From positions 1 to 36,454 of the forward strand of contig DBVT01000122.1 of the NCBI GenBank assembly GCA_002308775.1: 36,454 nt of DNA, given 5' to 3'. The stretch is from Mageeibacillus sp. UBA1257. Lineage in GTDB: Bacteria; Bacillota; Clostridia; UBA1212; UBA1257. Positions 12,910 to 30,190 of the stretch are shown here, in pieces. The position numbers were made by a program, and so were the translations under genes. Position 1 is the stretch's first letter. Every line of letters begins with the position of its first letter. The notes under the pieces were generated by a model. It had not been told where the DNA came from and did not search any database. It saw only the letters and a program-made list of their open reading frames with translations.

Positions 12910-13587
12910 ATGTGGAAGAGCATAGTGCTTGACGCGGTCGTAGTCGCGATAATCGTAATTTCAACGATAGTCTCCGCCAAAAGAGGCTTCGTAAAAAGTC
13001 TCATCTCATCCGCATGGCTGATCATATCCATCGTGGGCGGCATTATTTTAAGACCGATTTTTTTCGCGATATACAAATCGATGGGGCTGCTTGACAAAAT
13101 AACAGCCGGAATAAGCAAAGAGGCGCTCAACATAAGCCAAAATATGGATGTCTCCGATGTGGACGGCTTGCTCGCCGAGATGAAGATCCCGGAAAACATT
13201 CAAAAGAAGATACTCGAGAAGATAGGCGATTCTTCAACGATGACTCTCGAAACATTCAGCGGAAAAGTGGGAGAGACGCTCGGCAGATTCACCGTTAACG
13301 CGATGGCTTTTCTTACCGGCTTTGCGATCGTCGCGATCGTGATAGTAATGATCATGCTCATTTCCAAAGCCGTTCTTAAAATGTCTCCCCTCGGAGGCGT
13401 CGACAGATTTTTCGGAGCTCTCCTCGGCATCGTGATATCGTGGACTGTCATATATCTGATCTGCGTCGCCGTGTTCGCCCTGGCCGGAGCGGGACATCTC
13501 AAAGGATTTGCGGAAGTTATAGCAAATTCGAAGATCACGTATTTCATATACAGATTCAACCCGGTCACGCTCCTCATTCTGAGATAA
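12910..13587 (+). CDS. cvpA: CvpA family membrane protein
   Basis: N-terminus VLDAVVVAIIVISTIVSAKRGFVKSLISSAWLIISIVGG matches the CvpA pattern. Four or five TM helices. Confidence 0.72.
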   Translation: MWKSIVLDAVVVAIIVISTIVSAKRGFVKSLISSAWLIISIVGGIILRPIFFAIYKSMGLLDKITAGISKEALNISQNMDVSDVDGLLAEMKIPENIQKKILEKIGDSSTMTLETFSGKVGETLGRFTVNAMAFLTGFAIVAIVIVMIMLISKAVLKMSPLGGVDRFFGALLGIVISWTVIYLICVAVFALAGAGHLKGFAEVIANSKITYFIYRFNPVTLLILR

Positions 13588-13674
13588 CGCGCCGTAAACG
13601 GATGTGACATGGCTTTTTGCCCGAAAAGAGGGTAAAAAAGTCTTCAAAACTCAAAAATAATTTCAAAAAAACTG

Positions 13675-13703
13675 TTGACGAGTGCATTTTAATATGTTAA
13701 ACT
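13675..13703 (+). promoter_or_regulatory. Sigma-A type promoter upstream of rpmG-secE-nusG
   Basis: TTGACG (13675-13680), a 17-nt spacer, then TAAACT (13698-13703) with an extended -10 TG at 13695-13696. An A-rich UP-like tract lies upstream. Confidence 0.5.
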
Positions 13704-13755
13704 ACACTTTGCGTCTTTTTGATGCGACACTACGACATATGCGGAGGTGTGAACA

Positions 13756-13905
13756 ATGAGAGTAAATGTAACTCTTGCGTGCACAGAATGCAAAAGAAGA
13801 AATTACACGAGTAAGAAGAATAAGAAAAACGATCCTGACAGACTTGAAATGAGCAAATATTGCAAGTTCTGCAAGAAACATACCACTCACAGAGAGACTA
13901 AGTAA
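13756..13905 (+). CDS. rpmG: 50S ribosomal protein L33
   Basis: A 49-aa ORF absent from the track because of its size: [49 protein letters not shown]. It has the CxxC...CxxC zinc ribbon, RBS GGAGGTG upstream, and the canonical position before secE-nusG. Confidence 0.92.
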
Positions 13906-13956
13906 TCGGGAAGATTGCTCCGGCTGGGAACGTTTTAAGACAGTAGGGAGATAGAA

Positions 13957-14190
13957 ATGGCAAACGCAGAGAAAAAAGAAAAAAAGAATATTTTCGTACG
14001 CGCGTGGTCAGCGATCCGTAAATTCTTCAAAGGAATATTTGGTGAGCTTGGAAAAGTCACATGGCCGACAAAGAAGGAACTCACTCAGAACACGATCTCG
14101 GTTATTTTGTTCTGCCTGTTAGTCGGTATTATCATCTGGGTCTCTGATTTCCTGCTCCAACTCTTAGTTGGTGTTATTTATAATGCATAA
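13957..14190 (+). CDS. secE: Preprotein translocase subunit SecE
   Basis: A 77-aa protein with ELGKVTWPTKKEL followed by a single TM helix. It lies between rpmG and nusG. Confidence 0.88.
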   Translation: MANAEKKEKKNIFVRAWSAIRKFFKGIFGELGKVTWPTKKELTQNTISVILFCLLVGIIIWVSDFLLQLLVGVIYNA

Positions 14191-14203
14191 GGAGGAATGA
14201 GCG

Positions 14204-14740
14204 ATGTATATCGAAGGTGCTTCCGACGAACCCTTGTGGTATGTCGTCCATACATTGACGAACTACGAAGATAAAGTTAAAGCAAGTCTTGAACGTGTCA
14301 TCGAAAACAGAGGCATGCAGGACTATTTCTTTGGTATCATCATTCCTGTTCTTGAAGAGGTCAATGTAAAGGACGGAAAGGAAAGAGTAGTTCAGAAGAA
14401 AGTCTTTCCCGGCTATGTCCTCGTAAAAATGATCCTCACGGATGAAACATGGCTTCTTGTAAGAAATATACGCGGCGTGACGAGCTTCGTCGGCCCCGGC
14501 TCAAAACCCTCACCGCTTTCTGACAGAGAAGCACAGGCTTTGGGTATTGAAATTTCCGAAACCTTCGTCGATTACGAAGTCGGCGACCAGGTCAAAATCA
14601 TTTCCGGACCTCTTGCAAACTTCAACGGAACAGTTGAAGCTATTATGCTCGAGAAGGAAAGAGTCAAGGTACTTGTGCCCATGTTCGGCAGAACGATCTC
14701 AGCCGAGCTTGAGTATTCACAAATACAAAAGATTTTCTAA
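14204..14740 (+). CDS. nusG: Transcription termination/antitermination factor NusG
   Basis: WYVVHTLTNYEDKV NGN domain, FPGYVLVKM, and a C-terminal KOW (GDQVKIISGPLANFNGTVE). Confidence 0.94.
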   Translation: MYIEGASDEPLWYVVHTLTNYEDKVKASLERVIENRGMQDYFFGIIIPVLEEVNVKDGKERVVQKKVFPGYVLVKMILTDETWLLVRNIRGVTSFVGPGSKPSPLSDREAQALGIEISETFVDYEVGDQVKIISGPLANFNGTVEAIMLEKERVKVLVPMFGRTISAELEYSQIQKIF

Positions 14741-16605: not shown

Positions 16606-16691
16606 TCGCCGCATAGCTGAAACCTTTTACCACGGACAGCCGGAAAGACGGCAGCATGAATCAAAAAAATATCTAAATGGAGGAAATTATC

Positions 16692-17075
16692 ATGGCAAGT
16701 GAAAAAATCACAAATCTTATTGAAGAAGTAAAATCATTGACAGTTCTCGAACTTAACGAACTCGTTAAGGCTCTCGAGGAAGAATTCGGCGTATCAGCAG
16801 CAGCTCCCGTTGGCGCAGTTGTCGGCGGCGCAGCTCCCGCAGAAGCAGCAGCTCCGGTTGAGCAGACAGAATTCGACGTAGTTCTGAAGAGCGCAGGCCC
16901 GAACAAGATGAACGTTATCAAACTCGTTAAAGAGATCACAGGCGCAGCTCTTATGGAAGCAAAAGCTATCGTTGACGGAGCACCCAAGACTCTCAAAGAG
17001 AAAGTTTCCAAAGAAGACGCAGAAGCTATCGAAGCGAAACTCAAGGAAGCAGGAGCAGAAGTCGAAGTCAAGTAA
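16692..17075 (+). CDS. rplL: 50S ribosomal protein L7/L12
   Basis: [34 protein letters not shown]...[11 protein letters not shown] place the start at ATG 16692 because the track's ATG at 16677 overlaps the GGAGG RBS (16679-16683). Confidence 0.95.
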
Positions 17076-17108
17076 TTTTTACCTGTCAACAAAGACTGAT
17101 CAAGAAAG

Positions 17109-17137
17109 ACCGGTACCCGAAAGGGCGCCGGTTTTTG
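17109..17137 (+). terminator. Rho-independent terminator after rplL
   Basis: Stem ACCGGTACCC / GGGCGCCGGT (two mismatches) with a GAAA loop, followed by TTTTT. Confidence 0.7.
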
Positions 17138-17261
17138 CGTAAAAGGCGAAAAGGCAGCGAAAGCATCCGTATTATTCATTTTCCCGTCAAGTTGTGGTAA
17201 AATATATCCAAGACCTGACTGAAGTATAAAACGAAAGAAAAAAAGGGAAAAAGGTATTACT

Positions 17262-19073
17262 ATGCAGCAATATATCGAAGTTTTAACAGAGCAGGAGATA
17301 AAAGACATCCTGGTAAAAAGAAAAGACGAAGCAAGACTGCCTGAGTTCACGGGAGAAAGACTGGACGCGGTGAAAAAAAGCGCGAGGATCGCAGGATATA
17401 TCGAGTCTGTCCGAAAGTGCGCAGACGAATTCAGAAAAAGACACAATGAGAATCTGCCGTTTTCGAAATTCAAACTGTACGAGGAGAGCGGCAACAGGCT
17501 CGAAGCGGAAAACGAGTATTTCAGGACGAGGGTCAGGCTCGCCTGCTTTGCGATAATGGCGCTGATGTACGGGAGAAAAGAGGACATAAAAGAACTGAAC
17601 GACGTGATATGGGCGATATGTGACGAATACACGTGGTGCCTGCCTGCTCATCTCGACGGAACGGGTCTCAAAACGCTCCAGTACGGAGACAATTTCAAGG
17701 TGGATCTTTTCCAGTCCGAAACGGCCTGCGCGCTTTGCGAAGCGGTGCATTTTTGCGGCGAATACATACATCCGATAGTAAAAGACAGAGCTTTGACGCT
17801 TGCGAGAGACAGAGTTGTCAGAGTGTACGAAAAAAACACGTACGGCTGGGAGAGATGGCGCACGAACTGGGCTGCGGTTTGCGGCGGATGCGTCGGAATG
17901 TCGGCGATCTACGAGGAAAAAGAAGGATATATAACTGTAGACGAGCTCGCGAATATACTGTACAGAACGCAGAGCACGATGCAGTTTTTCCTCGAGGGAT
18001 TCCCGTCAGACGGAACGTGCAGCGAGGGAATAACATACTGGGAATACGGGTTCGGATATTTTACATATTACGCTGATGTTCTGATGCGCAGAACATGCGG
18101 TGATATAGACTATTTCAAGATCCCTCACGTAAAAAAGATAGCGGAGTTCCACCAAAAATGTTTTTTCCCGTCAGGCGCAAGAGTCAGTTTTTCAGACGCG
18201 GGAAAGGAAGACACGATCAATTACGCCCTTATATCGTACCTTTCGGACAAATACGAGAGCGTGAGTACGCCGAGAAGCTCATGCGGTGAGATGACATTCA
18301 GAGATTCCAGCAGCAGATTCGCGAGGGAGCTTCGGAACATCCTCTGGGACTCTCAAAAAGAAAAAAAGCAAGAAGAAGTGACTAAAATATATATCCTTCG
18401 CGATCTCTCGTGGTATATTGCTACGAGTGACGATGAGAAGATCGATTTTGCTGCGAAAGCGGGAAGAAACGACGAGGCTCACAACCATAACGACATAGGT
18501 TCGTTCCAGCTCCACAAAAACGGCAGCGAGATATTCGCGGAGCTCGGAGGAGGGGAATACACAAAAGAATATTTCAGTCCCGACAGGTACAACGTCTTCT
18601 GCTGTTGCTCGCGCGGCCACTCCGTTCCGATAATCGGAGGAAAGTATCAGGCGCCGGGCGGACAATTCAGAGCTTCGGAAGTGTCGATAGACGAGAACGG
18701 CATTTCGATGGACATGAAAGGAGCCTATAACGACGGTAATCTTGCGCATTTTTACAGAGCGTTTTACTTTGAAAAAGAAACAGGTGTTCTGAAAATAACA
18801 GATTCGTTCGAATTCGCTGAAAAGCCTGAGACGGTCTGCGAGAGGTTTATACTTTACACGGAGCCGGAGATCGGTAAAAATCGTGCGACTGTTTCTTCGG
18901 AGGGCAAAAAGGAAAAAATGACGCTGGAAGCCGCAGGAGAGGATTTCGACGTAAACGTCGAAAAAGTGACGCACAGCCTGCATAACGGAAGGAAAATACA
19001 GATATACTGTCTCGATTTTACCGTGAGAGACAAAAAAGCGATGAAAGGAAAATACGAGTTCACTGTAAGGTGA
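17262..19073 (+). CDS. Heparinase II/III-like family protein, no signal peptide (predicted cytoplasmic)
   Basis: The C-terminal region EAHNHNDIGSFQLHKNGSEIFAELGGGEYTKEYF...RGHSVPIIGG matches the H-x-H-x-D..SF..G...D.G...Y..N pattern of the heparinase II/III domain. The N-terminal half is alginate-lyase-like (YTWCLPAHL). No hydrophobic N-terminus. Confidence 0.62.
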   Translation: MQQYIEVLTEQEIKDILVKRKDEARLPEFTGERLDAVKKSARIAGYIESVRKCADEFRKRHNENLPFSKFKLYEESGNRLEAENEYFRTRVRLACFAIMALMYGRKEDIKELNDVIWAICDEYTWCLPAHLDGTGLKTLQYGDNFKVDLFQSETACALCEAVHFCGEYIHPIVKDRALTLARDRVVRVYEKNTYGWERWRTNWAAVCGGCVGMSAIYEEKEGYITVDELANILYRTQSTMQFFLEGFPSDGTCSEGITYWEYGFGYFTYYADVLMRRTCGDIDYFKIPHVKKIAEFHQKCFFPSGARVSFSDAGKEDTINYALISYLSDKYESVSTPRSSCGEMTFRDSSSRFARELRNILWDSQKEKKQEEVTKIYILRDLSWYIATSDDEKIDFAAKAGRNDEAHNHNDIGSFQLHKNGSEIFAELGGGEYTKEYFSPDRYNVFCCCSRGHSVPIIGGKYQAPGGQFRASEVSIDENGISMDMKGAYNDGNLAHFYRAFYFEKETGVLKITDSFEFAEKPETVCERFILYTEPEIGKNRATVSSEGKKEKMTLEAAGEDFDVNVEKVTHSLHNGRKIQIYCLDFTVRDKKAMKGKYEFTVR

Positions 19074-19077
19074 CGCG

Positions 19078-20205
19078 ATGACTGAAGAAGATAATATAAT
19101 CGAAAAAGATGAAATAAACGAAACGCTGCTTCCGGAGGACGCAGCGGGCTCTTTCGTTGTGATCATCCCGGCTTACAATCCGGGAGAGGTCATGATCGAG
19201 TTTATTACAAAGCTTTTTTGTGCCGGATTTAAAAATATAGTGATCATCGACGACGGGAGTAAAGAGGAGAGCAGAGGGGTGATAAGCGACGCCGAATCAT
19301 TCGGATGCAGAGTGGTCAGGCACGCCGTCAATCTCGGAAAGGGCAGATCCCTGAAGGACGCCCTGAACTATATCGCCCTTTATATGAGCGAATGCAAATA
19401 CGGGATGGTTCTCGATTGCGAAGGAAGGCAGAATATAAAAAGCATAAATGAACTTGCAAATGCCCTGATTGAAAATCCGGATTCGCTCGTCCTTGCCTGC
19501 CGGAATTACAGAAGCAAAACGGTAAAATTCAAAAACGTTATTACAAACTTTTTTACAAGACTTGCAATGATACTTTTCTGCGGAATATCAGTTTATGACA
19601 CAAAAACGACCTTCAGGGCGTTCTCGATCGAAACCGCAATGAAGTTTATAAATACTGCGGGAGAGAGATACGATTACGAAGTCAACGTCATACTCGAATC
19701 GAAGGCAAAAGAGGTAAAAATAAAAGAGATCAAGGTAGACGACAGCAATTTCGAGAACAAAAAGTCGCATTACAATCCTCTCAGAGACTCATTTAATCTG
19801 TATAAAATATTCCTTCGTTACGTGCTCGTCGCTCTCATTACGTACGGCGTGGACCTGGGTCTTTTCAGATTGCTGATGGAGTATCTTAAAATAATCTCCC
19901 CGATTTATTACACCGTGATCGATACGGTGATCGCGAGGGTTGTTTCATCATTTGTCGGATTCCTGATAAAAAGGAACAAAGTATTCAAAACGAAAGAGCA
20001 CACCGCAGCAACCACGGCAAAATATTACATCGTAACGTTCGGACAGATGCTCGTATCGGCTATTTCAGTATGGCTCATCCAGAGGATATGGCACGTTGAC
20101 GTCGTTGTCATAAAAATGATAGTTGACTTTATACTCTTCATAATCGGTTTTGTTCTGCAAAGAGAATGGGTCTTCAAGACGTACGGCAAAAAAACGAAGA
20201 AATGA
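19078..20205 (+). CDS. Glycosyltransferase family 2 fused to a GtrA-like membrane domain
   Basis: GT2 N-terminus FVVIIPAYNPGEVMIEF...IVIIDDGS. The C-terminal four-helix module ends in REWVFK, typical of GtrA. It starts 4 nt after the stop of the previous gene. Confidence 0.8.
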   Translation: MTEEDNIIEKDEINETLLPEDAAGSFVVIIPAYNPGEVMIEFITKLFCAGFKNIVIIDDGSKEESRGVISDAESFGCRVVRHAVNLGKGRSLKDALNYIALYMSECKYGMVLDCEGRQNIKSINELANALIENPDSLVLACRNYRSKTVKFKNVITNFFTRLAMILFCGISVYDTKTTFRAFSIETAMKFINTAGERYDYEVNVILESKAKEVKIKEIKVDDSNFENKKSHYNPLRDSFNLYKIFLRYVLVALITYGVDLGLFRLLMEYLKIISPIYYTVIDTVIARVVSSFVGFLIKRNKVFKTKEHTAATTAKYYIVTFGQMLVSAISVWLIQRIWHVDVVVIKMIVDFILFIIGFVLQREWVFKTYGKKTKK

Positions 20206-20379
20206 CGCTTTACAAAAGACGGGCTATAGTTTTTCTTTGGTAAGTTGCATAATTAAGTATTCAAAGTAAAAAGTAACTCCAAAGAAAAAGATATGATTTA
20301 ATGTAGTTAACTAACAAACAATGATAAGCGGACATTTAAACTTGCAATTTAAACTTTTGAAAAAATATTTAAAAACCAG

Positions 20380-20407
20380 TTGCAGAATAATGAAAATATG
20401 TTATAAT
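20380..20407 (+). promoter_or_regulatory. Near-consensus sigma-A promoter driving the low-GC cassette
   Basis: TTGCAG (20380-20385), a 16-nt spacer containing an extended -10 TG (20399-20400), then TATAAT (20402-20407). It lies about 95 nt upstream of the 20501 ATG. Confidence 0.6.
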
Positions 20408-20500
20408 ACTAATGGTATCGCTTAAATTTATCATTTGAAAGGCGAATTTACAGACCGGACGATGTTGTATGTTTGACAATTTTATTAAGGAGGTACCACT

Positions 20501-22993
20501 ATGAAGAGACTATTTGCTGTTTTTATGGTTTTTTGCCTTGTATTTTGTATGCAGACACAGCCAACCGTTACCGCAACAAATAATGAGGAAGAAAACTTCA
20601 GTAGCGCACCTTGTGAAATTGCCGATGACATTGTATCAGAAATTGCAAGTGAAGATCAGAAAGAGATTTCCGATTCGGATAAGTTATTTGAATCGATCAG
20701 TAATGAGACGCATTTGCTCGATTACGTAGATGCAAAGCAGTTTGCAAGCAAGAAACATATTGCAAGAATAACGGAAAAAGAAGACCTTGATACGTACGTC
20801 TTTTTGAATGAAGACGGAACGAATACCATGTATTTGATGGCGGAAAAAGTAAAATATATTGCCGCTGACGGAAGTATTCATGAAAAAAATATAAAATTGA
20901 TTTCCCGAGACGGAAAATATATAACGAGTGACAATAACACGGACGTTTCACTTTCGAAAGACAGCTGTGAAACAGAAGTGATTTTAGATAACAGCAGTTT
21001 AAAAATTACAGTACCCGGAGCAGTATGCGAAGGAATATTTGAAGAAGACGGTAATACGGTTACGTATAAGGACGTATTCGGTGCAGGAATCGATGTCAGA
21101 TATACACCCACGTTATCGGGACTCAAGGAAGATATAATAATCGAAAGATATAACGGAATAAATGCATTTGAATTCAGGGCAGAGACTGATCTTTGCCTTT
21201 TTGAAGATGAATCAGGATACTATTTTGCGGAATATGAAACAGCCGGGCTGAAATTCAGAATCGGAAGAATAATTGCATATGACGCCGTAGGCAATATCTC
21301 TTTAGGCGTTCTTGAATATGAATTAACAGACGGAGGATATTTAATAAGGGTAACAGCGGACAATGAATTTCTTTCATCAGCCGATACCGTTTATCCTGTC
21401 ACCGTAGATCCGACTATCAACGTTTATGAAAGTACAGACGGCAGTTCGATTCAGGATGCCGCATTGTATTATATGGTCCCGGGAGCAAACTTAGGAAACA
21501 TGACTGTTAACCCTCTCGGAACAAAAAATACCAATACCGGACTCGGAAGAACAGCAATGAGACTTTCAGGACTTGAGAACAATACCGTCTTTTCCGGTCT
21601 TAACTTAAATGAAATCAAACGCGCAACGCTTTACGTTAAAGGAAACGGAACATACAGCCCTACGCAGATAGTTTGTTATAAAATGCTGGGAGAGCAGACG
21701 TGGGGAGAATACACCGTAACGTACAGTAACGTAGGGACTGTAGACGGTCCCAGCGGCAGCAGAGCGTATATGTCGGAGTCTTACTGGACCAGAATTGATT
21801 TAAAGACAATAATGCAGATGTGGAAAGCCTCTAATTACAACTCCTATTGTTTGCTGCTCACGGCTGTCGATGAAGCAAATACTTATGCGGAGTTTTGCTC
21901 ATCAAAGAACGGTACTACGTCATACAGACCGTACGTCACGATTGATTACGGAGATATTGTAATTGACAGGCTGTCATCGAGTTATAACGATCAAAGCATA
22001 TACAGCACGTCTCTTCAAAAACGGATGAATTGTTACGGATATGCGATACAGGTGTATACTGATGAGTTGGTTGATACGTATATAGTGCCCGGATATACAT
22101 TGCATTTAAATGAGGTATTGTATGACTATTATTTGCAGCAACCAGGTGAGTTTTCCACAACTCAAACCAATAACTTCGCGAGTCTTTTACTTACATATGG
22201 TGGGGCATATGCCAATGCGCCGTTTTCTGTGTATATTAATTTTGTTGAGTCAATGATGAAACGAGATTTTAGCAAATTACAATTAACAGATGGACTGGAA
22301 TGGGACATAGAAGATTCTTCAGCAAATGAAACCGTCCCTGAAGGATACAGAAAAATTGCTTTGGTTGTCGGGAATAATAACGGCACTAACGAAAATGATT
22401 ACCATTTTTACATGCGTCATGACGATGGGACCTGGAGCCATAAACGGGGCGATTATCCAAGGAGTGATAAATCAATAACAACAGATGTAAAAATAACGGA
22501 TGCAAATATTGATGTTGTTGCAAAAGAGGAATATTATGCAGGTGGAGAAATAAGATATTATTTGATAAAAAAATCTGCAATAGTCGATTACTATCATTCG
22601 AATCATACGAACAGTCCAGCTACATTCTATGACTACGTACCCGGAGGAAACAAGATAGAAAAAAGTTTTCCAATTAACGGAATGTATAATTCGGTGAAAA
22701 TTGATTATTATAATGATATTGACTTTTTCGTCTTTAAACCTTCAACGACAGGCAATTACGGTTTCAATACAGAATATACACTTGATGAAAACGGAAACAG
22801 TAGCAGCACACTTGACGTTAAATTGGCAATTTACGACAGTACGGGAACCCTTATGGCAAACAGTTCGAGTGCATACGGTGAAGCTTACGCCGGAGCGTGT
22901 TATCTAATTGCAAACAAAAACTATTTCATCAAATTCTGGACAGGGTCACGCCAAAAGTGCACGTCGAACCTGAGAATACAACAGTTGTACTAA
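20501..22993 (+). CDS. Secreted 830-aa multidomain protein: DNRLRE-like domain, unassigned Cys/His module, PPC-like C-terminal domain
   Basis: RBS AAGGAGG and signal peptide MKRLFAVFMVFCLVFCMQTQPTVTA. Residues ~300-490 (VTVDPTINVYESTDGSSIQDAALYY...GRTAMRLSGL...IKRATLYVKG) resemble a DNRLRE domain. Residues ~500-690 carry NCYGYA (Cys511) and DYHFYMRHDDGTWSHKRG (His635). The C-terminal ~100 aa carry the DIDFFVFKPSTTGNY motif of pre-peptidase C-terminal domains. Confidence 0.8.
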   Translation: MKRLFAVFMVFCLVFCMQTQPTVTATNNEEENFSSAPCEIADDIVSEIASEDQKEISDSDKLFESISNETHLLDYVDAKQFASKKHIARITEKEDLDTYVFLNEDGTNTMYLMAEKVKYIAADGSIHEKNIKLISRDGKYITSDNNTDVSLSKDSCETEVILDNSSLKITVPGAVCEGIFEEDGNTVTYKDVFGAGIDVRYTPTLSGLKEDIIIERYNGINAFEFRAETDLCLFEDESGYYFAEYETAGLKFRIGRIIAYDAVGNISLGVLEYELTDGGYLIRVTADNEFLSSADTVYPVTVDPTINVYESTDGSSIQDAALYYMVPGANLGNMTVNPLGTKNTNTGLGRTAMRLSGLENNTVFSGLNLNEIKRATLYVKGNGTYSPTQIVCYKMLGEQTWGEYTVTYSNVGTVDGPSGSRAYMSESYWTRIDLKTIMQMWKASNYNSYCLLLTAVDEANTYAEFCSSKNGTTSYRPYVTIDYGDIVIDRLSSSYNDQSIYSTSLQKRMNCYGYAIQVYTDELVDTYIVPGYTLHLNEVLYDYYLQQPGEFSTTQTNNFASLLLTYGGAYANAPFSVYINFVESMMKRDFSKLQLTDGLEWDIEDSSANETVPEGYRKIALVVGNNNGTNENDYHFYMRHDDGTWSHKRGDYPRSDKSITTDVKITDANIDVVAKEEYYAGGEIRYYLIKKSAIVDYYHSNHTNSPATFYDYVPGGNKIEKSFPINGMYNSVKIDYYNDIDFFVFKPSTTGNYGFNTEYTLDENGNSSSTLDVKLAIYDSTGTLMANSSSAYGEAYAGACYLIANKNYFIKFWTGSRQKCTSNLRIQQLY

Positions 22994-23046
22994 CTTAACT
23001 TTTGATTATTTTTTTGACAATTCATAAAAAAGGAAGGAGAAACATT

Positions 23047-23982
23047 ATGAACACAAAAAGAATCACAATTATTTCAATCTGCGTATTGGTTGCATGTTTT
23101 GTTATGGCAGGGATTTTTGCATTCGCAGTCGCAAGCAACGATCAGTTTTTCAATGAAACCTTACCGAGCGAGCAAAAAAAACAGGAAGAGCCCGATTTGC
23201 CGTCAAAAGAAAACGTGAAACCGCTTTCTGAAGCACCGCAATATATTCAGGATATGATAAATACGTATTTTATCGATGCAGACGGAAATCTGCTTACTTC
23301 TCTCAAAACGGATGACTATTACAAAGATTGGGACGGCTACTACGAAAAGGTTCTTCGTGCATGCAGAAAACAATGGGATAAACTTACAGAAATGCAGCAG
23401 CAAAGCTACATAGACGAGTACCTTTTTAATTATTACAGTGTTCCAGATGGAGATACAGGTCTGTTTCGTTACGATGAAGAAAATAAACCGGATATGACAG
23501 ATGAGGAGCTTCTCGAGCGTGTCATTCTGTTCTATGGCAAACTGGGATCATCTTACGTCGTCCGCATAAACAGAGTGATTAATGGAGAGTTAGAGAAATA
23601 TAAACCCAGACCTGATATTGAAAAAATCAGAGAGTGGTTTGCATATACAATTGAAAGAACAGATCCGCAGGACATGGAAGATTATTTTTACCTTCTGTAT
23701 TCATGTATTAACCTTTCTGCTTCAGTACCTGATTTCTGTTTAGGAAGCGGGATGCCATCTTCTATAATAGCACTTGATGATACGTTGACAAGGTTTTTGG
23801 TATGCGGCTATACAGGCAGACATCCTCTTTATTATGTATTTGATGAGACTTATGAACATCTTCATATTGAAGAACTTTGCCCCGAAGCAAATGCCTTTTT
23901 TAACTGGACTGATGAATCGGGAGATTATACGAAAGACGAATATACTGGATACGCGAAAGCCATGTATGAATGCTTTGGATAA
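23047..23982 (+). CDS. Hypothetical membrane-anchored protein (311 aa), partner of the 830-aa protein
   Basis: RBS AGGAGA 8 nt before ATG 23047; I reject the track's TTG at 23002. One N-terminal TM helix (ITIISICVLVACFVMAGIFAFAV) is followed by a ~270-aa acidic, Tyr/Asp-rich exported domain. I recognised no family. Confidence 0.7.
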   Translation: MNTKRITIISICVLVACFVMAGIFAFAVASNDQFFNETLPSEQKKQEEPDLPSKENVKPLSEAPQYIQDMINTYFIDADGNLLTSLKTDDYYKDWDGYYEKVLRACRKQWDKLTEMQQQSYIDEYLFNYYSVPDGDTGLFRYDEENKPDMTDEELLERVILFYGKLGSSYVVRINRVINGELEKYKPRPDIEKIREWFAYTIERTDPQDMEDYFYLLYSCINLSASVPDFCLGSGMPSSIIALDDTLTRFLVCGYTGRHPLYYVFDETYEHLHIEELCPEANAFFNWTDESGDYTKDEYTGYAKAMYECFG

Positions 23983-24020
23983 GAAGCACAAAGCGGAGCG
24001 AACCGAATTTGATTATGTTA

Positions 24021-24052
24021 AAAAGCACTGTGTCTTGCAGTGCTTTTAATTT
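24021..24052 (+). terminator. Rho-independent terminator closing the low-GC cassette
   Basis: Stem AAAAGCACTG / CAGTGCTTTT (10 bp perfect) with loop TGTCTTG, followed by AATTTT. Confidence 0.65.
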
Positions 24053-24152
24053 TATCTAAGGGGCAGATCGAACTTTTTTCGTTTGTTGGCAAATTGCAGT
24101 GAGCAAAAAGCATTGTTCAATATTTCAGCAGTTTTTTCTTGCCGAATACGTA

Positions 24153-24181
24153 TTGACAACAATAACGGAAAACTGTAAAAT
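24153..24181 (+). promoter_or_regulatory. Sigma-A type promoter upstream of the flavodoxin gene
   Basis: TTGACA (24153-24158), a 17-nt spacer, then TAAAAT (24176-24181). Confidence 0.5.
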
Positions 24182-24226: not shown

Positions 24227-24778
24227 ATGAAAGTACTTGTATTATACACAACGGTGGACGGAAATACAGCGGCAGTCGCGAAGAGCATAGCAGACAGACT
24301 CGGCGCGGATATATCCAAGATCGTCAGAGTAAAGAAAGTTAAAGGGTACGGCTTTTTTAACAATCTCAAACTGAGGATGGAAGTATCGAGAAAGAAAAAG
24401 CCCGATATTTTCCCGTTCAAATGGGACCCGAGAGACTACGATCTGATATTCATAGGCACGCCTGTTTGGTACGATTCATACAACCCCGTATACAATACTC
24501 TTTTTAACGTGATCAAGATATATGACAGAAAGATAGCCCTGTTCTCGACAGGTGAGAAGCCCGAAGGAAAGGCGCTCAAAAAACTGGCTGCTGTTCTTGA
24601 GGATTCTGTGCTGCTCGGTACGTATCACTGCATAGAGCCTATCTGGGAAGACGATGAAAAGGAGACGGAGAGGATCCTTAACGAAGCTGCCGACTGGGCG
24701 AAGACCATATACGACGAAGCCGAGAAGATGAAAGAGGAAGAGGAATTCAAGAGAAGAAAGACGATATACAAATATTGA
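24227..24778 (+). CDS. Flavodoxin family protein
   Basis: MKVLVLYTTVDGNTAAVAKSIADRLGA is a flavodoxin-like FMN-binding N-terminus, and LIFIGTPVWY is the second loop. RBS AAAGGAG. Confidence 0.75.
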   Translation: MKVLVLYTTVDGNTAAVAKSIADRLGADISKIVRVKKVKGYGFFNNLKLRMEVSRKKKPDIFPFKWDPRDYDLIFIGTPVWYDSYNPVYNTLFNVIKIYDRKIALFSTGEKPEGKALKKLAAVLEDSVLLGTYHCIEPIWEDDEKETERILNEAADWAKTIYDEAEKMKEEEEFKRRKTIYKY

Positions 24779-24827
24779 TTTTCTGCTTTTGTTCCGCAAC
24801 AAAAACAAAGGCTGGACCTTACGGAAA

Positions 24828-25619
24828 ATGACGGAAAAACTTATTGAAAAATACGCCGAAATGAGGATCAAACCCTACAGAAAGGACAGTGAATACTCCT
24901 ACACCTGTGGGGTTTTTCCGACTATCGAATTATTAAAAAGGAAACCGCAGTATGTGATACGCGTGGCGATGTCTTCGGAGAGCGATAAGAGCCGCGGAAG
25001 CGATATCGTCAGGGAGCTTGCGAAGGAGAACGGGATACCCGTGGTTACTGATGACAAAACCATCGAGCGTATCGCCGCGAAGGACAACTGTCTCTGCGCC
25101 GGGGTCTTTTTAAAATACGAAGAAGAGATCAGACAGGACACGGATCACATAGTCCTCGTGAACCCTTCGGATATGGGAAATATAGGGACGATAATAAGGA
25201 CATCGTCAGCCTTCGGTTTTGAAGATCTCGCCGTTATCACTCCCGCGTGCGATATATTCGATCCTAAGGCCGTACGCGCCTCAATGGGAGCCCTTTTCGG
25301 CATCAGAGTAAAATTATTCGCTTCGTTCGAAGAGTACCTTAAAACGCCCCACAGAGGCTCACAGAGACATATCTATCCTTTCATGTTAAAAGGGGAAAAA
25401 CTTACGAGGCAGATCGCTGACGAAGCTGTGGCGATGAGCAAAGAAGGGGAGCATTTTACGCTCGTGTTCGGAAACGAATCGAGAGGGCTGGACGATTCAT
25501 ATCTCGATATCGGAAGGCCGCTGCTGATACCCATCAGGGACACTGTGGATTCGCTCAACCTGCCTGTCGCGGTATCGATCGGAGAATATATGTTTTCAGC
25601 GAAGGGAGAGAAAAAATGA
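24828..25619 (+). CDS. TrmH/SpoU (SPOUT) family RNA 2'-O-methyltransferase
   Basis: SPOUT motifs VNPSDMGNIGTIIRTSSAFG, LVFGNESRGL and IPIRDTVDSLNLPVAVSIGEY. I place the start at ATG 24828; the track's TTG at 24789 is possible. Confidence 0.8.
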   Translation: MTEKLIEKYAEMRIKPYRKDSEYSYTCGVFPTIELLKRKPQYVIRVAMSSESDKSRGSDIVRELAKENGIPVVTDDKTIERIAAKDNCLCAGVFLKYEEEIRQDTDHIVLVNPSDMGNIGTIIRTSSAFGFEDLAVITPACDIFDPKAVRASMGALFGIRVKLFASFEEYLKTPHRGSQRHIYPFMLKGEKLTRQIADEAVAMSKEGEHFTLVFGNESRGLDDSYLDIGRPLLIPIRDTVDSLNLPVAVSIGEYMFSAKGEKK

Positions 25620-26464
25620 CAGACACGCTCGCAAAGAAAATTCAGGACAAGTCTTCGCTCCTGGGGATATCTTCCGAAGAAGTCTCGCTTGCGAAGGCGC
25701 TTTTTGTAAACAGAAAATACGATTACAGGGGAGAAACAAGGCTGTTCATATGCGAAGGACTGTGGGCAGCTAAAAAGCTCGCGGAATCGAAGATCACAGT
25801 CACGCATTTCCTTTTCGATCCGGAGAAGGTGACGGACGAAGAGGAAGCGGACGTTTCGCTGATGCTCGATTACGCGGAGGAGTCTTTTACGGTATCGGCA
25901 AAGGTGTGCGCAAAGATCAGCGACAGGGACGGAGCGGATCACTGCTTCATAGTTGCCAGGCTTCCGGAATACAAACTCGAAGATATCAGGCTGTCTGACG
26001 AAGAGATTTCGATAGTTCTCGACGGACAGGAGCAGCCGGGCAACGTTGGCGCTATACTTAGGTCGCTGGACGGCGCCGGAGGATCGTTTGCCGTGATGAC
26101 CAACAGGCGCGTAAAACTCACCCACAGCAGGCTGGTCAGAGCAAGTCTTGGAGCCGTTTTTACCATGAAAGTCGTTGAAGCAGACGCGGACGAACTCGCG
26201 AAATGGCTTGTTGACAATCATTTCAAAATAGTCGTGACGGATCTCAAAGCGACATATCCGTACTACGAGGCAGACTACAGCGGAAGGGTCGCGATAGTCG
26301 CCGGAAACGAATACAACGGCGTGTCCCCTCTTTGGAACACACTTCCCGGAGCGACACCCGTCATCATCCCGATGCTCGGAAAATGTGAATCCCTGAATGT
26401 CGGTTTTGCTTCAACTTTAGTCGCTTACGAAGCAGCCGTTCAGAAGATGCGAAAGAGGAGATGA
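25616..26464 (+). CDS. Second TrmH/SpoU (SPOUT) family RNA methyltransferase
   Basis: ATGA overlap with the upstream paralogue. Motifs QEQPGNVGAILRSLDGAG, AIVAGNEYNGVS and IPMLGKCESLNVGFASTLVAYE. Confidence 0.8.
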   Translation: MTDTLAKKIQDKSSLLGISSEEVSLAKALFVNRKYDYRGETRLFICEGLWAAKKLAESKITVTHFLFDPEKVTDEEEADVSLMLDYAEESFTVSAKVCAKISDRDGADHCFIVARLPEYKLEDIRLSDEEISIVLDGQEQPGNVGAILRSLDGAGGSFAVMTNRRVKLTHSRLVRASLGAVFTMKVVEADADELAKWLVDNHFKIVVTDLKATYPYYEADYSGRVAIVAGNEYNGVSPLWNTLPGATPVIIPMLGKCESLNVGFASTLVAYEAAVQKMRKRR

Positions 26465-28348: not shown

Positions 28349-30190
28349 ATGTTTGATTTTGAAGACGAGCTTAAAAAACTGCCGGACAAGCCAGGAGTGT
28401 ATATAATGAGAAACAGCGAAGACGCTGTTCTCTACGTCGGAAAAGCGGTCGTGCTGAAGAACAGGGTCCGCTCTTATTTCCGCGGCAGTCACTCCGAGAG
28501 GATCTCGAAAATGATCGAGCAGATCGATCATTTCGAATATATCGTCACGGACAGCGAGTACGAGGCGCTTTTACTCGAGTGCAGTCTGATAAAAAAACAC
28601 AAGCCGAAATACAATGTACTGCTCAAGGACGACAAAAATTTTCCGTATATAAAACTCACGGTGAACGAGCCTTTTCCGAGACTTCTTCTGGCGAGAAAAG
28701 CCGACAAAGACGGAGCGAGATATTTCGGACCTTACCTCGGAGCCGAGACTGTATACAACGTGATCGACGCTGTGAGGAGGATATTTCCGACGAGGCTCTG
28801 CCGCAAAAAAATACCTCCCGAAGGAGGACACGACAGGGTATGCCTCAACTTTCACATCGGCCTTTGCACCGGTCCGTGCGGCGGAAAGATCACGAGAGAA
28901 GAATATATGGAGAACGTCGAGCACATAATCGCCCTTCTTTCCGGCAAAACCGAATCTACGGAAAAATATCTGAAGGAGAAAATGCTCGAGGCCTCCGAAA
29001 AGATGGAATTTGAGCTCGCCGCGACATACAGAGACAGACTCAAGGCAGTTGACTCTCTTAAAGAACGCCAAAAGATAGTTAAAACGTCCTCCGGCGACTG
29101 CGACATCATTGCCGTCGCGAAGAACGAAAACGACAGCTGCCTGCAGATCTTTTTCTTCAGAAACGGCAAGATCAGCGGCAGAGATTATTTTATTTTCGAA
29201 AATTCGGGCGAGCTTTCCGACTGGGAGATAATATCGTCTTTCATAACGCAATTTTACTCTGACGGGAGGCTGGTGCCGGGGAGCATACTGATAGAGTGCG
29301 AACCTGACGAAGAAGATGCCGCGCTGATCACAGAATGGCTGACAAAAGAGAGGGAGCACAAATGTACTCTCGTCTGCCCGCAAAAGGGAGAAAAAAAGCG
29401 TCTCGTCGAAATGGTAAAAAACAACGCGGTGATCACGCTCGAGAACTTCGAACTTTCGGGCCGTCAAAAGGCGAACGCGAAAAATATGACTCCGGACGCG
29501 CTGGCGGAAATACTGCATCTGGAAAAGACACCCGAAAGGATAGAAGCGTACGATATATCGAACCTGGGAGACAGTGAAATAGACGCGTCGATGGTCGTTT
29601 TTACCAACGGAGGACCGGACAGGAGCCAGTACAGACGCTTTAAGATGAAGACAGTCGAATCGAGAAACGACGTCGGAAGCGTCAAGGAGACGATCTCGAG
29701 GAGGCTTGCTCATCTGAAAGAAGGCGACGAGGAATTCGGCAAAAAACCTGATCTTATGATGATCGACGGAGGAAGAGGACAGGTGAACGCCGCTATAGAA
29801 GCGGTGAAGGAAGCCGGATTCGACATACCTGTCTGCGGAATGGTCAAGGACGGCCACCATAAAACAAGGGGCCTTTATTCTGCTGAAGGCGAATATCCTC
29901 TCCGCGACGACAGGGAGATGTGGCATTTCGTGAGCGCGATCCAAAACGAGGCTCACAGATTCGCGATAACTTACAACAGAAAGCTGACGGAGAAGAGATA
30001 CAGGGATTCGGAACTCGACAATATACCGGGCGTAGGAGAGGCAAAGAGGCTGCTTCTGTACAGGTCACTGGGTTCGCTTCCGGCGATAAAGGCCGCGACA
30101 AAAGAGGAACTTGCAGGCGTGAAAGGCATCTCCGAAAGCCTTGCCGGGAGAATATACGACGCCCTGCACGCGGAGGATGGTAAAAAATGA
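28349..30190 (+). CDS. uvrC: Excinuclease ABC subunit C
   Basis: GIY-YIG N-terminus (PGVYIMRNSEDAVLYVGKAVVLKNRVRSYF), a UVR domain, an endonuclease V-like domain and a C-terminal HhH. 613 aa. Confidence 0.95.
   Translation: MFDFEDELKKLPDKPGVYIMRNSEDAVLYVGKAVVLKNRVRSYFRGSHSERISKMIEQIDHFEYIVTDSEYEALLLECSLIKKHKPKYNVLLKDDKNFPYIKLTVNEPFPRLLLARKADKDGARYFGPYLGAETVYNVIDAVRRIFPTRLCRKKIPPEGGHDRVCLNFHIGLCTGPCGGKITREEYMENVEHIIALLSGKTESTEKYLKEKMLEASEKMEFELAATYRDRLKAVDSLKERQKIVKTSSGDCDIIAVAKNENDSCLQIFFFRNGKISGRDYFIFENSGELSDWEIISSFITQFYSDGRLVPGSILIECEPDEEDAALITEWLTKEREHKCTLVCPQKGEKKRLVEMVKNNAVITLENFELSGRQKANAKNMTPDALAEILHLEKTPERIEAYDISNLGDSEIDASMVVFTNGGPDRSQYRRFKMKTVESRNDVGSVKETISRRLAHLKEGDEEFGKKPDLMMIDGGRGQVNAAIEAVKEAGFDIPVCGMVKDGHHKTRGLYSAEGEYPLRDDREMWHFVSAIQNEAHRFAITYNRKLTEKRYRDSELDNIPGVGEAKRLLLYRSLGSLPAIKAATKEELAGVKGISESLAGRIYDALHAEDGKK

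Follow-up and report, generated by a model that had tools for sequence, protein, structure and literature searches.

A low-GC, strain-variable two-gene cassette in Clostridia encoding a putative secreted thiol-hydrolase toxin and a candidate surface-tethered immunity protein

The window analysed here is a stretch of 36,454 nucleotides (nt) from Mageeibacillus sp. UBA1257 (contig DBVT01000122.1 of assembly GCA_002308775.1), and this work concerns a low-GC cassette within it, situated between a gene encoding a GT2-GtrA glycosyltransferase and a flavodoxin gene. The cassette contains two open reading frames (ORFs), of 830 and 311 amino acids (aa), as a preliminary description of this DNA had stated: the first encodes a secreted multidomain protein, and the second a smaller partner anchored at the membrane. 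We consider it highly probable that the pair was acquired horizontally and forms a conserved two-gene module; that it consists of a Sec-secreted thiol-hydrolase toxin and its cognate surface-tethered immunity or inhibitor protein is a proposal based on sequence comparison, to which we attach moderate probability. The features of the locus are the following:

20202 to 24141 (about 3.94 kb), no strand: inserted segment, from local alignment to the empty-site contig L094; left end uncertain, about 20182 to 20206
20206 to 20500, plus strand: AT-rich leader and promoter spacer of 295 bp, GC 0.281, read directly
20380 to 20407, plus strand: promoter-like element, TTGCAG, 16-nt spacer, TG-n-TATAAT; read directly, predicted only
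20501 to 22993, plus strand: codes for the secreted multidomain protein of 830 aa, a putative thiol-hydrolase toxin (ORF with a ribosome-binding site, RBS, at 20487-20493)
20501 to 20575, plus strand: predicted Sec signal peptide (MKR, hydrophobic core, ...TVTA/T cleavage), heuristic reading
20678 to 21592, plus strand: conserved N-terminal module, aa ~60-364, from invariant motifs and homologues covering 50-60% of the query
21593 to 21943, plus strand: CBM96/DNRLRE domain, aa 365-481 (NF033679, PF24517)
21968 to 22645, plus strand: novel Cys/His core, aa 490-715, from alignments and AlphaFold2 (AF2) models
22658 to 22990, plus strand: PPC/collagen-binding-type beta-sandwich, aa ~720-830, from Foldseek on the AF2 model
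23047 to 23982, plus strand: codes for the membrane-tethered partner of 311 aa, a putative inhibitor or immunity protein (ORF with RBS at 23030-23040)
23539 to 23811, plus strand: family-defining partner domain, aa ~165-255 (...ING-x-L...VPDF-x-LGSG...), from a leave-out profile and alignment
24021 to 24052, plus strand: intrinsic terminator with a 12-bp stem (24021-24047), 3-nt loop and T-run, from a sequence scan
24153 to 24181, plus strand: flavodoxin promoter-like site, TTGACA-17-TAAAAT, outside the insert; kept, diverged, in the empty allele

The preliminary description credited the cassette with a strong promoter of its own and a clean terminator. The terminator is as described, and the extended -10 element of the promoter is perfect (TGTTATAAT, 20399-20407), but the -35 hexamer TTGCAG (20380-20385) is weak, agreeing with the consensus at 3/6 positions, which is why the promoter goes unlisted in a consensus scan. 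A strong RBS precedes each gene, AAGGAGG in the case of the first; the start codon of the 311-aa gene is the ATG at 23047, preceded by GGAG, and the mechanical ORF list begins this gene at TTG 23002.

Compositionally, the cassette stands out from its surroundings, the baseline being this window plus the flanks of a second locus (contig L192, described below). GC content lies at 0.33-0.43 in 600-nt windows at ~19.5-24.6 kb and at ~0.45-0.53 elsewhere, with a window mean of 0.467. The GC content of third codon positions (GC3) is 0.373 in the 830-aa gene and 0.356 in the 311-aa gene, vs. 0.529 in the adjoining upstream GT2-GtrA gene (19078-20205) and 0.560 in the downstream flavodoxin gene (24227-24778); all remaining non-ribosomal genes of the window fall within 0.52-0.61, and the ribosomal-protein genes within 0.41-0.54. 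The low GC proposed earlier is therefore real, and within the window such values are not common to genes for secreted proteins, as GC3 is normal in those for GDPD (0.571) and for a 597-aa beta-propeller protein (0.605). The total-GC dip starts early, at ~19.2 kb, because of the hydrophobic GtrA domain, an effect that is not seen in sliding GC3; the break in codon usage and GC3 is limited to the two cassette genes. Their relative codon usage correlates with that of ordinary genes and of ribosomal-protein genes equally poorly (r=0.51 for both), whereas these two sets correlate with each other at r=0.80, and the fraction of His codons that are CAT is 0.96 in the cassette vs. 0.40 and 0.36 in the ordinary and ribosomal sets. 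High-expression codon bias was considered as a cause of the low GC3 and rejected, since the pair matches neither set. A smaller second GC dip (0.40-0.41 at 13500-14400) corresponds to a 616-bp intergenic region followed by rpmG-secE-nusG, and appears ordinary for intergenic DNA and highly expressed genes.

Comparison with related sequences revealed a presence/absence polymorphism and placed its junctions. The alleles were surveyed by looking up exact copies of the rplL and flavodoxin proteins encoded in the flanks, which led to short contigs from many samples. Two of them, L094 (sample ERZ27257202) and L098 (ERZ27256871), are independently assembled empty alleles, 98-99% identical to the window from flavodoxin on and yet without the cassette. 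Since the homology of L094 reaches through the 3' end of GT2-GtrA up to window position 20201 and is found again in the flavodoxin promoter region from 24142, the insert extends from about 20202 to 24141; it takes the place of 17 bp of the L094 empty allele, and its right junction lies ~90 bp past the terminator. The GT2-GtrA protein ends in '...IIGFIAQREWVFKTREKKGEEKVSKDRNHIDKKKKKM*' in both empty alleles, with the stop codon 53 nt before the flavodoxin start codon, and in '...YGKKTKK*' in the cassette allele, the empty allele having the longer native tail, which runs into the flavodoxin promoter. The recombination tract may reach into the GT2-GtrA gene, judging from its final 42 nt, which are ~79% identical between cassette and empty alleles as against 98% downstream. 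On the other hand, the cassette is kept at >=99% identity in most of the contigs found via the flanking proteins (L086, L093, L095-L097 and L099), and an identical 830-aa protein occurs in the same context in two 'Clostridia bacterium' metagenome-assembled genomes (MAGs), GCA_017414005.1 (JAFPRK010000052) and GCA_016282115.1. A third allele, at nt 1-116 of L100 (aligned to window 24207 onward), carries unrelated AT-rich sequence up to the flavodoxin RBS, so that the GT2-GtrA/flavodoxin intergenic site seems to be a recurrent hot spot of insertion or replacement. This sequence of L100 also holds a possible divergent minus-strand ORF that begins near nt 20.

Two independent lines, synonymous-site composition and the empty-site contigs, thus support the horizontal acquisition suggested in the preliminary description, and the converse that it named, syntenic and vertical inheritance, fails on two contigs nearly identical to the window in the downstream flank. 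The absence of mobility genes holds as well: no integrase, transposase or recombinase was found among the annotated neighbours of the cassette, no tRNA, and no convincing flanking direct or inverted repeats. Collections of phage and plasmid DNA contained no DNA match to the cassette, Rfam gave no match, PADLOC models gave none at E<=0.1, and PHROGs gave a single non-significant one (E=0.047). The cassette is not a classical genomic island, phage, plasmid or known anti-phage defence system. Family members in IMG/VR (L197:1199-1952 and L196:158-913) lie beside transposase fragments (phrog_33747, phrog_4716) or a DNA methyltransferase, contexts which hint that some relatives travel with mobile elements; none such is present in the window.

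The 830-aa protein is built of a signal peptide (signal-peptide and lipobox calls being heuristic throughout), an N-terminal module of ~300 aa with no Pfam or PDB relative, a CBM96 domain, the Cys/His core and a PPC-type domain. CBM96 is recognised by NCBIfam NF033679 (49.6 bits, cut-off 34) and, marginally, by Pfam PF24517 (26.5 bits, cut-off 26), and its profile also matches PDB 7vbo and 8wab. The PPC assignment relies on Foldseek matches to the collagen-binding domains of ColH/ColG and to the PPC domain 5sv5 (3jqw, 5sv5 and 1nqj; probability 1.0, target-normalised TM-score ~0.64-0.77); PF04151 is annotated on the homologues P0081, P0083 and P0093 and is below threshold on the window protein itself. 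The 75 full-protein homologues mostly align only to aa 1 to ~490. Eight of these homologues were scanned with Pfam: Big_2 and/or ricin-type domains were found in 8/8 and a C-terminal cysteine-peptidase domain in 6/8, namely Peptidase_C70/AvrRpt2-like (P0005, P0013), Peptidase_C39_2 (P0030, P0055, P0061) or CHAT (P0002). Peptidase_C70 and C39_2 are papain-like folds and CHAT is caspase-like. The window protein carries the novel core followed by PPC in the slot where its relatives have C70, C39_2 or CHAT; this organisation shows one chassis with many warheads, and the exchange of domains in the same slot supports, by analogy, a thiol-peptidase-type function for the core.

The core itself resembles nothing characterised. 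Neither the C-terminal 341 aa nor the core has a Pfam or PDB match by sequence or profile, and none of 22 core members matched any Pfam family, papain-fold toxin models included, at E<=10; the Tox-PL1 'NC...H...D' profile is likewise not matched, though the N-C dyad is invariant. About 45 homologues of the C-terminal 341 aa were found, many of them stand-alone secreted proteins of ~360 aa from Lachnospiraceae MAGs. Invariant in the alignments are N510-C511-Y-G, Q-x-P-G-x-F, D633-x-H635-x-Y, W645-S-H647-K-x-G, N669, D696 and H699 (C511 is encoded at 22031-22033, H635 at 22403-22405 and H647 at 22439-22441). The AF2 model of core plus PPC has a predicted local distance difference test (pLDDT) of 79 and a predicted template-modelling score (pTM) of 0.77; because its Foldseek list was dominated by PPC matches, the core was also modelled alone (pLDDT 75, pTM 0.77). 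The core is modelled as a compact alpha+beta domain in which C511 opens a helix and two adjacent strands hold H635 and H647, 12 residues apart. A Cys at a helix start with His on strands is the catalytic layout of papain-like and NlpC/P60 enzymes. Foldseek of the core vs. PDB returned nothing significant (best E=0.06, TM-score ~0.2), and the weak list consists mostly of clan-CA thiol peptidases: Josephin-type bacterial deubiquitinases, RavD, ubiquitin-specific proteases, vasohibin, the NlpC/P60 enzyme DPP-VI and a C39 domain. We infer that the core would be a clan-CA/NlpC-P60-like thiol hydrolase acting extracellularly on an envelope component.

The only significant fold matches of the core are three uncharacterised proteins among predicted viral structures (BFVD F2Y2U4, M1HB16 and A0A1V0SF80; E=5e-8, 2e-5 and 1e-3, TM-score up to 0.49/0.61), one of them named as from Hokovirus, a giant virus. 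Many GVMAG contigs and phage-like contigs of IMG/VR (L198-L252) encode weak sequence relatives of the D-x-H-F-Y...W-S-H-K region. As far as these sequence matches can be followed, the core superfamily is much wider than the Clostridia module.

The 311-aa partner has an N-terminal hydrophobic anchor at aa 6-29 (nt 23062-23133) that includes the lipobox-like motif LVAC. Direct searches for relatives were nearly empty: an indexed search led to one homologue, and an exhaustive HMMER search across 1.84 billion representatives yielded, besides the query, just a 65-aa fragment and two marginal repeat-type matches, so that membership of a family became visible only via genomic context and an iterated hidden Markov model (HMM). 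Each of L101, L102, L105 and L004 has, 13-42 nt behind a core-domain gene, a small gene without Pfam match; some of the encoded proteins have in common with the window partner the motif (A/V)PDF-x-GGSG (BLASTP L102 vs. L105, E=4e-14; L102 vs. the window partner, E=0.002). A metagenome scan with the core alignment, with mechanical ORF calling, added 80 further loci. An HMM built from four seeds, trimmed of their 40 N-terminal residues so that signal peptides would not mislead it, and then iterated, converged on 71 ORFs, 71/71 of them on the same strand and directly downstream of core-domain genes. With the window and L003-type sequences left out, the HMM still recognises the window partner over aa ~164-279 at 31.7 bits (E=6e-9), vs. 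7.4 bits for the best of 1000 shuffles. The pair is thus a conserved two-gene module elsewhere, a search for which had been recommended; and as core and partner alike have no Pfam, NCBIfam, PADLOC or PDB family, it stands as the undescribed system for which the preliminary description had made it a candidate.

Linkage is tight in the neighbourhood of close core genes. Among the non-redundant ones with downstream room, 21/23 have a same-strand ORF at -60 to +120 nt; 19 of these 21 ORFs are signal- or transmembrane-like, 10 have a lipobox and 18 match the partner HMM. Distant core relatives with room have a linked ORF in 14/26 cases (11 signal-like, 0 of this partner family), and among control ORFs 62/111 have a downstream ORF, signal-like in 15/62. 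Partner genes are single or stand in tandem arrays of 2-5 paralogues, five in L133 and four each in L116, L118 and L119. Their products are anchored by a lipobox, an N-terminal transmembrane segment, an LPQTG wall anchor or a type-I dockerin (Dockerin_1 E=1e-12), the genes with special anchors being:

L146:3638-4729: partner gene with dockerin
L149:2975-3955: partner gene with dockerin
L136:5385-6944: partner gene with LPQTG

One partner-family protein combines two partner domains, Thr/Ser-rich linkers and the LPQTG motif. Judging from these sequences, the membrane is not the only place where the partner domain can be exposed: cellulosomes or the cell wall can carry it too. Relatives of the 830-aa protein with other catalytic domains are followed by other families: a CHAT-type relative by a 336-aa lipoprotein, and a C70-type one by two paralogous proteins, each with a signal peptide and a C-terminal transmembrane anchor, none of them matching the partner HMM. 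The partner family therefore changes with the catalytic domain. Within the window partner, aa 67-109 (23245-23370, '...INTYFIDADGNLLTSLKTDDYYKDWDGYYEKV') match two large proteins (955 aa and 1406 aa), at six repeated places in either one and with marginal E ~5e-4; this stretch may be, by sequence, a wall-binding-type repeat.

A second, decayed copy of the pair provides natural genotypes of a different kind. The closest homologue of the partner (328 aa, 55% identical, II748_07340) belongs to a conspecific MAG that also has the cassette partner (II748_02460), and its gene has on one side that of a 793-aa membrane protein, located downstream of ftsA-ftsZ, and on the other rimP-nusA-infB. GC3 is low again at this locus (0.335 in the enzyme remnant and 0.383 in the partner, vs. 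0.49-0.58 in flanking genes). In L192, L194, L195 and L003, the promoter-proximal region and the first 184 enzyme codons are fused to the partner start codon, this remnant being 77% identical in nucleotides to window 20413-21028, with the same figure for the spacer from 20413 on; L193, from the MAG itself, retains only the last 61 enzyme codons (95% aa identity to the window), with both flanks 99.9% identical. As read from the alignments, the L192-type remnant and L193 are two different deletions of one full-length ancestral enzyme gene. The 328-aa partner ORF is intact in 5/5 contigs and identical over the N-terminal 60 aa checked. Sample ERZ27256871 combines locus 1 in its empty state (L098) with locus 2 in its orphan-partner state (L003). 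The two enzyme copies have diverged as a mosaic, with 95% aa identity at the C-terminal end and 69% at the N-terminus. The partner copies are 83% identical over aa 1-35, 78% over aa 71-160 and 36% over aa 161-311 (synonymous divergence, dS, being saturated), so that the family-defining domain is the most diverged partner segment, at 36% vs. 78-95% in adjacent segments. Directly upstream of the remnant, the 793-aa multi-transmembrane protein (L192:6886-9267, GC3 0.44) has no Pfam match and no similarity to the 830-aa protein; its gene may be part of an older acquired segment.

Several of these properties are those by which polymorphic toxins are recognised: a secreted multidomain protein with a conserved N-terminus and alternative C-terminal domains in its relatives, a small downstream gene whose family co-varies with the catalytic domain, and arrayed or orphan partner genes together with decay of the enzyme gene; membership of the core in a named peptidase family was not found. 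A toxin-immunity pair is favoured because arrays, orphan partners, strain-level presence/absence and a hyper-divergent partner domain are classic for antagonism and immunity. Several clades of papain-fold toxins are known, and secreted, transmembrane or lipoprotein immunity has been called exceptional and a mark of surface-acting toxins (PMC3482391), so most immunity proteins are not extracytoplasmic. In the mechanism we propose, a strain-variable operon with its own promoter and terminator, in an uncultured gut or rumen 'Clostridia bacterium', would export the enzyme by Sec with its N-terminal module serving for presentation or binding, and the enzyme would be set free or stay attached to surfaces by its CBM96 and PPC domains. 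It would then cleave an envelope component of neighbouring bacteria, for which peptidoglycan stem peptides or surface proteins are candidates, while the C-terminal ~100-aa domain of the partner would bind and neutralise it on the outer face of the producer's membrane. Producers and partner carriers would be protected and competitors not, and strains might keep or accumulate partner genes to resist the enzymes of their neighbours. We infer the catalytic chemistry, the target, the toxicity and the direct binding of enzyme and partner alike.

A number of observations weigh against this proposal. No characterised peptidase matches the core significantly, so 'thiol hydrolase' rests on motif geometry and on the analogy of domain position. 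CBM96, ricin-type and Big_2 domains are likewise characteristic of adhesins and of enzymes that degrade glycans, which makes dietary or host substrates possible, and no dedicated release or lysis function was seen. The window partner has weak pairwise similarity to other partners (the BLASTP E=0.002 given above) and is atypically long, with an extra conserved region, aa 71-160, common to both copies and not found in other family members. Five close core loci (L004, L128, L142, L143 and L150/151) have no partner-family gene, and the lipoprotein downstream of the core gene in L004 shows no BLASTP similarity to the partner and no partner-HMM match. Finally, the placing of locus 2 in the same genome depends on MAG binning, which could in principle mis-assign it.

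The strongest competing explanation, which we hold to be unlikely but of appreciable weight, is that the enzyme is a secreted protease or other hydrolase for nutrients or for plant or host surfaces, and that the partner is a self-protective inhibitor shielding the surface proteins or the cellulosome of the producer itself. Carbohydrate-binding modules, CBM96 here and ricin-B or Big_2 in the relatives, are typical of enzymes that target glycans and glycoproteins (PMC9971899), and the loci come from gut- or rumen-type metagenomes, by record names. The dockerin of the partner-family proteins in L146 and L149 points in the same direction. Dockerin-borne protease inhibitors are known from cellulosomes. 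It is hard for such a nutritional role to account for as many as five diverged paralogues of the partner lined up in tandem behind one enzyme gene, and repeated loss of the enzyme with the partner kept, strain-level presence/absence of the cassette and the hyper-divergent partner domain count against it too. An improbable alternative is that the partner serves as a membrane-anchored foldase or steric chaperone, or as a surface receptor retaining the enzyme, after the manner of the lipase-Lif pair, in which a downstream gene encodes an anchored extracytoplasmic foldase; the window gene is likewise downstream, tightly linked, probably co-transcribed and specifies an N-terminally anchored extracytoplasmic protein. 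Nonetheless, a foldase or receptor is useless without its enzyme, and the partner is intact after two independent enzyme deletions; moreover, chaperones are not expected to stand in arrays of 3-5 diverged paralogues or to have an interaction domain that evolves fast. That the genes are native and vertically inherited, with low GC due to protein composition or expression and with 'empty' contigs that are deletions or assembly artefacts, is hardly credible: although ribosomal-protein genes also have lowish GC3 and the hydrophobic GtrA region lowers total GC already before the cassette, its codon usage is remote from both gene sets, other secreted-protein genes have normal GC3, the empty allele with its longer native GT2-GtrA tail into the flavodoxin promoter comes from two independent samples, and a related copy at a different chromosomal site has low GC3 again.

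Read as toxin and immunity protein, the pair can be compared with several known systems. WapA of S. suis is a Sec-exported polymorphic toxin with a DNRLRE domain in its N-terminal wall-binding fragment (PMC12704120). The cassette resembles WapA-WapI of B. subtilis and S. suis in signal-peptide export, an N-terminal surface-binding region, interchangeable C-terminal toxin domains, a small cognate gene directly downstream, strain-variable content and orphan immunity genes. Unlike WapA, the cassette protein has no RHS/YD repeats, LysM, HINT or releasing peptidase, and cassette-type heads are all thiol-peptidase-type and followed by binding domains (PPC, ricin, Big_2) rather than placed at the extreme C-terminus. 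WapI is cytoplasmic, whereas cassette-type partners are extracytoplasmic and surface-anchored. In the Tae-Tai/Tse1-Tsi1 pairs of type VI secretion (T6SS), a papain-like or NlpC/P60-type Cys-His amidase acts in the wall compartment and an adjacent gene encodes same-compartment immunity; the likeness lies in a putative Cys-His hydrolase with the neighbouring gene's protein in the same compartment, peptidoglycan being a presumed target in the cassette. These systems use a contractile T6SS in Gram-negative bacteria, whereas the cassette has only a Sec signal and belongs to Clostridia, and there is no significant similarity of sequence or fold.

Strings of immunity paralogues occur in Firmicutes, and the cassette family is like EsaD-EsaG and TspA-TsaI of type VII secretion (T7SS) in having non-identical immunity paralogues strung downstream of a polymorphic toxin (PMC9484751). 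It is unlike T7SS loci in that no WXG/LXG domains or T7SS genes are present in the window, and the families are unrelated. TelC-TipC is a T7SS toxin-immunity pair with a membrane- or surface-located TipC; TsaI and TipC are so located since the toxin acts outside the cytoplasm, and the cassette partner is likewise tethered. The class III bacteriocins or bacteriolysins lysostaphin-Lif and zoocin A-Zif comprise Sec-secreted modular wall enzymes that possess a targeting domain and are encoded beside an immunity gene, frequently within acquired DNA. Unlike the cassette, with its candidate surface inhibitor and putative thiol enzyme, these bacteriolysins are M23 metallopeptidases, and their immunity proceeds by FemABX-like cross-bridge modification. 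Staphopain-staphostatin and SpeB-Spi have a thiol protease gene followed by a specific inhibitor gene, the inhibitors being cytoplasmic and not known to form arrays, and IseA/YoeB is an extracellular inhibitor of NlpC/P60 DL-endopeptidases; staphostatin, Spi and IseA offer a gene-pair likeness to the cassette and no sequence similarity to the partner family. Overall, the toxin-immunity logic is familiar; what is new is three undescribed protein modules, Sec-only export and immunity displayed at the surface in several ways.

If the toxin-immunity proposal is true, it assigns roles to three unannotated families (those of the N-terminal module, Cys/His core and partner domain) and allows gene pairs now labelled 'hypothetical', of which metagenomes from human gut and rumen contain hundreds, to be read as competition loci. 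It would also mean that abundant gut Clostridia use polymorphic toxins without a specialised secretion machine, with immunity displayed at the surface, some of it on a dockerin or wall anchor. The natural genotypes (cassette-positive, empty-site and orphan-partner loci) make the hypothesis directly testable, and the resemblance in fold between the core and uncharacterised proteins of giant viruses raises a further, evolutionary question. More tentatively, the core may define a new superfamily of extracellular thiol hydrolases, common to gut and rumen Clostridia and giant viruses, which together with surface-displayed inhibitors could form a widespread Sec-only interbacterial weapon, with a CBM96 delivery module and interchangeable peptidase warheads, each with its own tethered immunity protein.

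With regard to the remainder of the window, rplK-rplA-rplJ-rplL are followed by a 603-aa heparinase-II/III-like gene and GT2-GtrA (17262-20205), not by rpoB/rpoC, and the 603-aa gene has native GC3 (0.57). Among species-representative genomes, no syntenic genome was found with the 603-aa protein as anchor (the best match is 42% identical, in unrelated contexts), and tblastn of all window proteins found no common neighbourhood. Antisense ORFs are present on the minus strand at 16673-17632 (319 aa, opposite rplL and the 603-aa gene) and 28571-29956 (461 aa, opposite uvrC); their low-complexity translations indicate that both are artefacts of mechanical ORF calling. Beyond flavodoxin, tandem overlapping genes of SpoU-family methyltransferases occupy 24789-26464, the start of the first varying by assembly (301, 263 or 276 aa).

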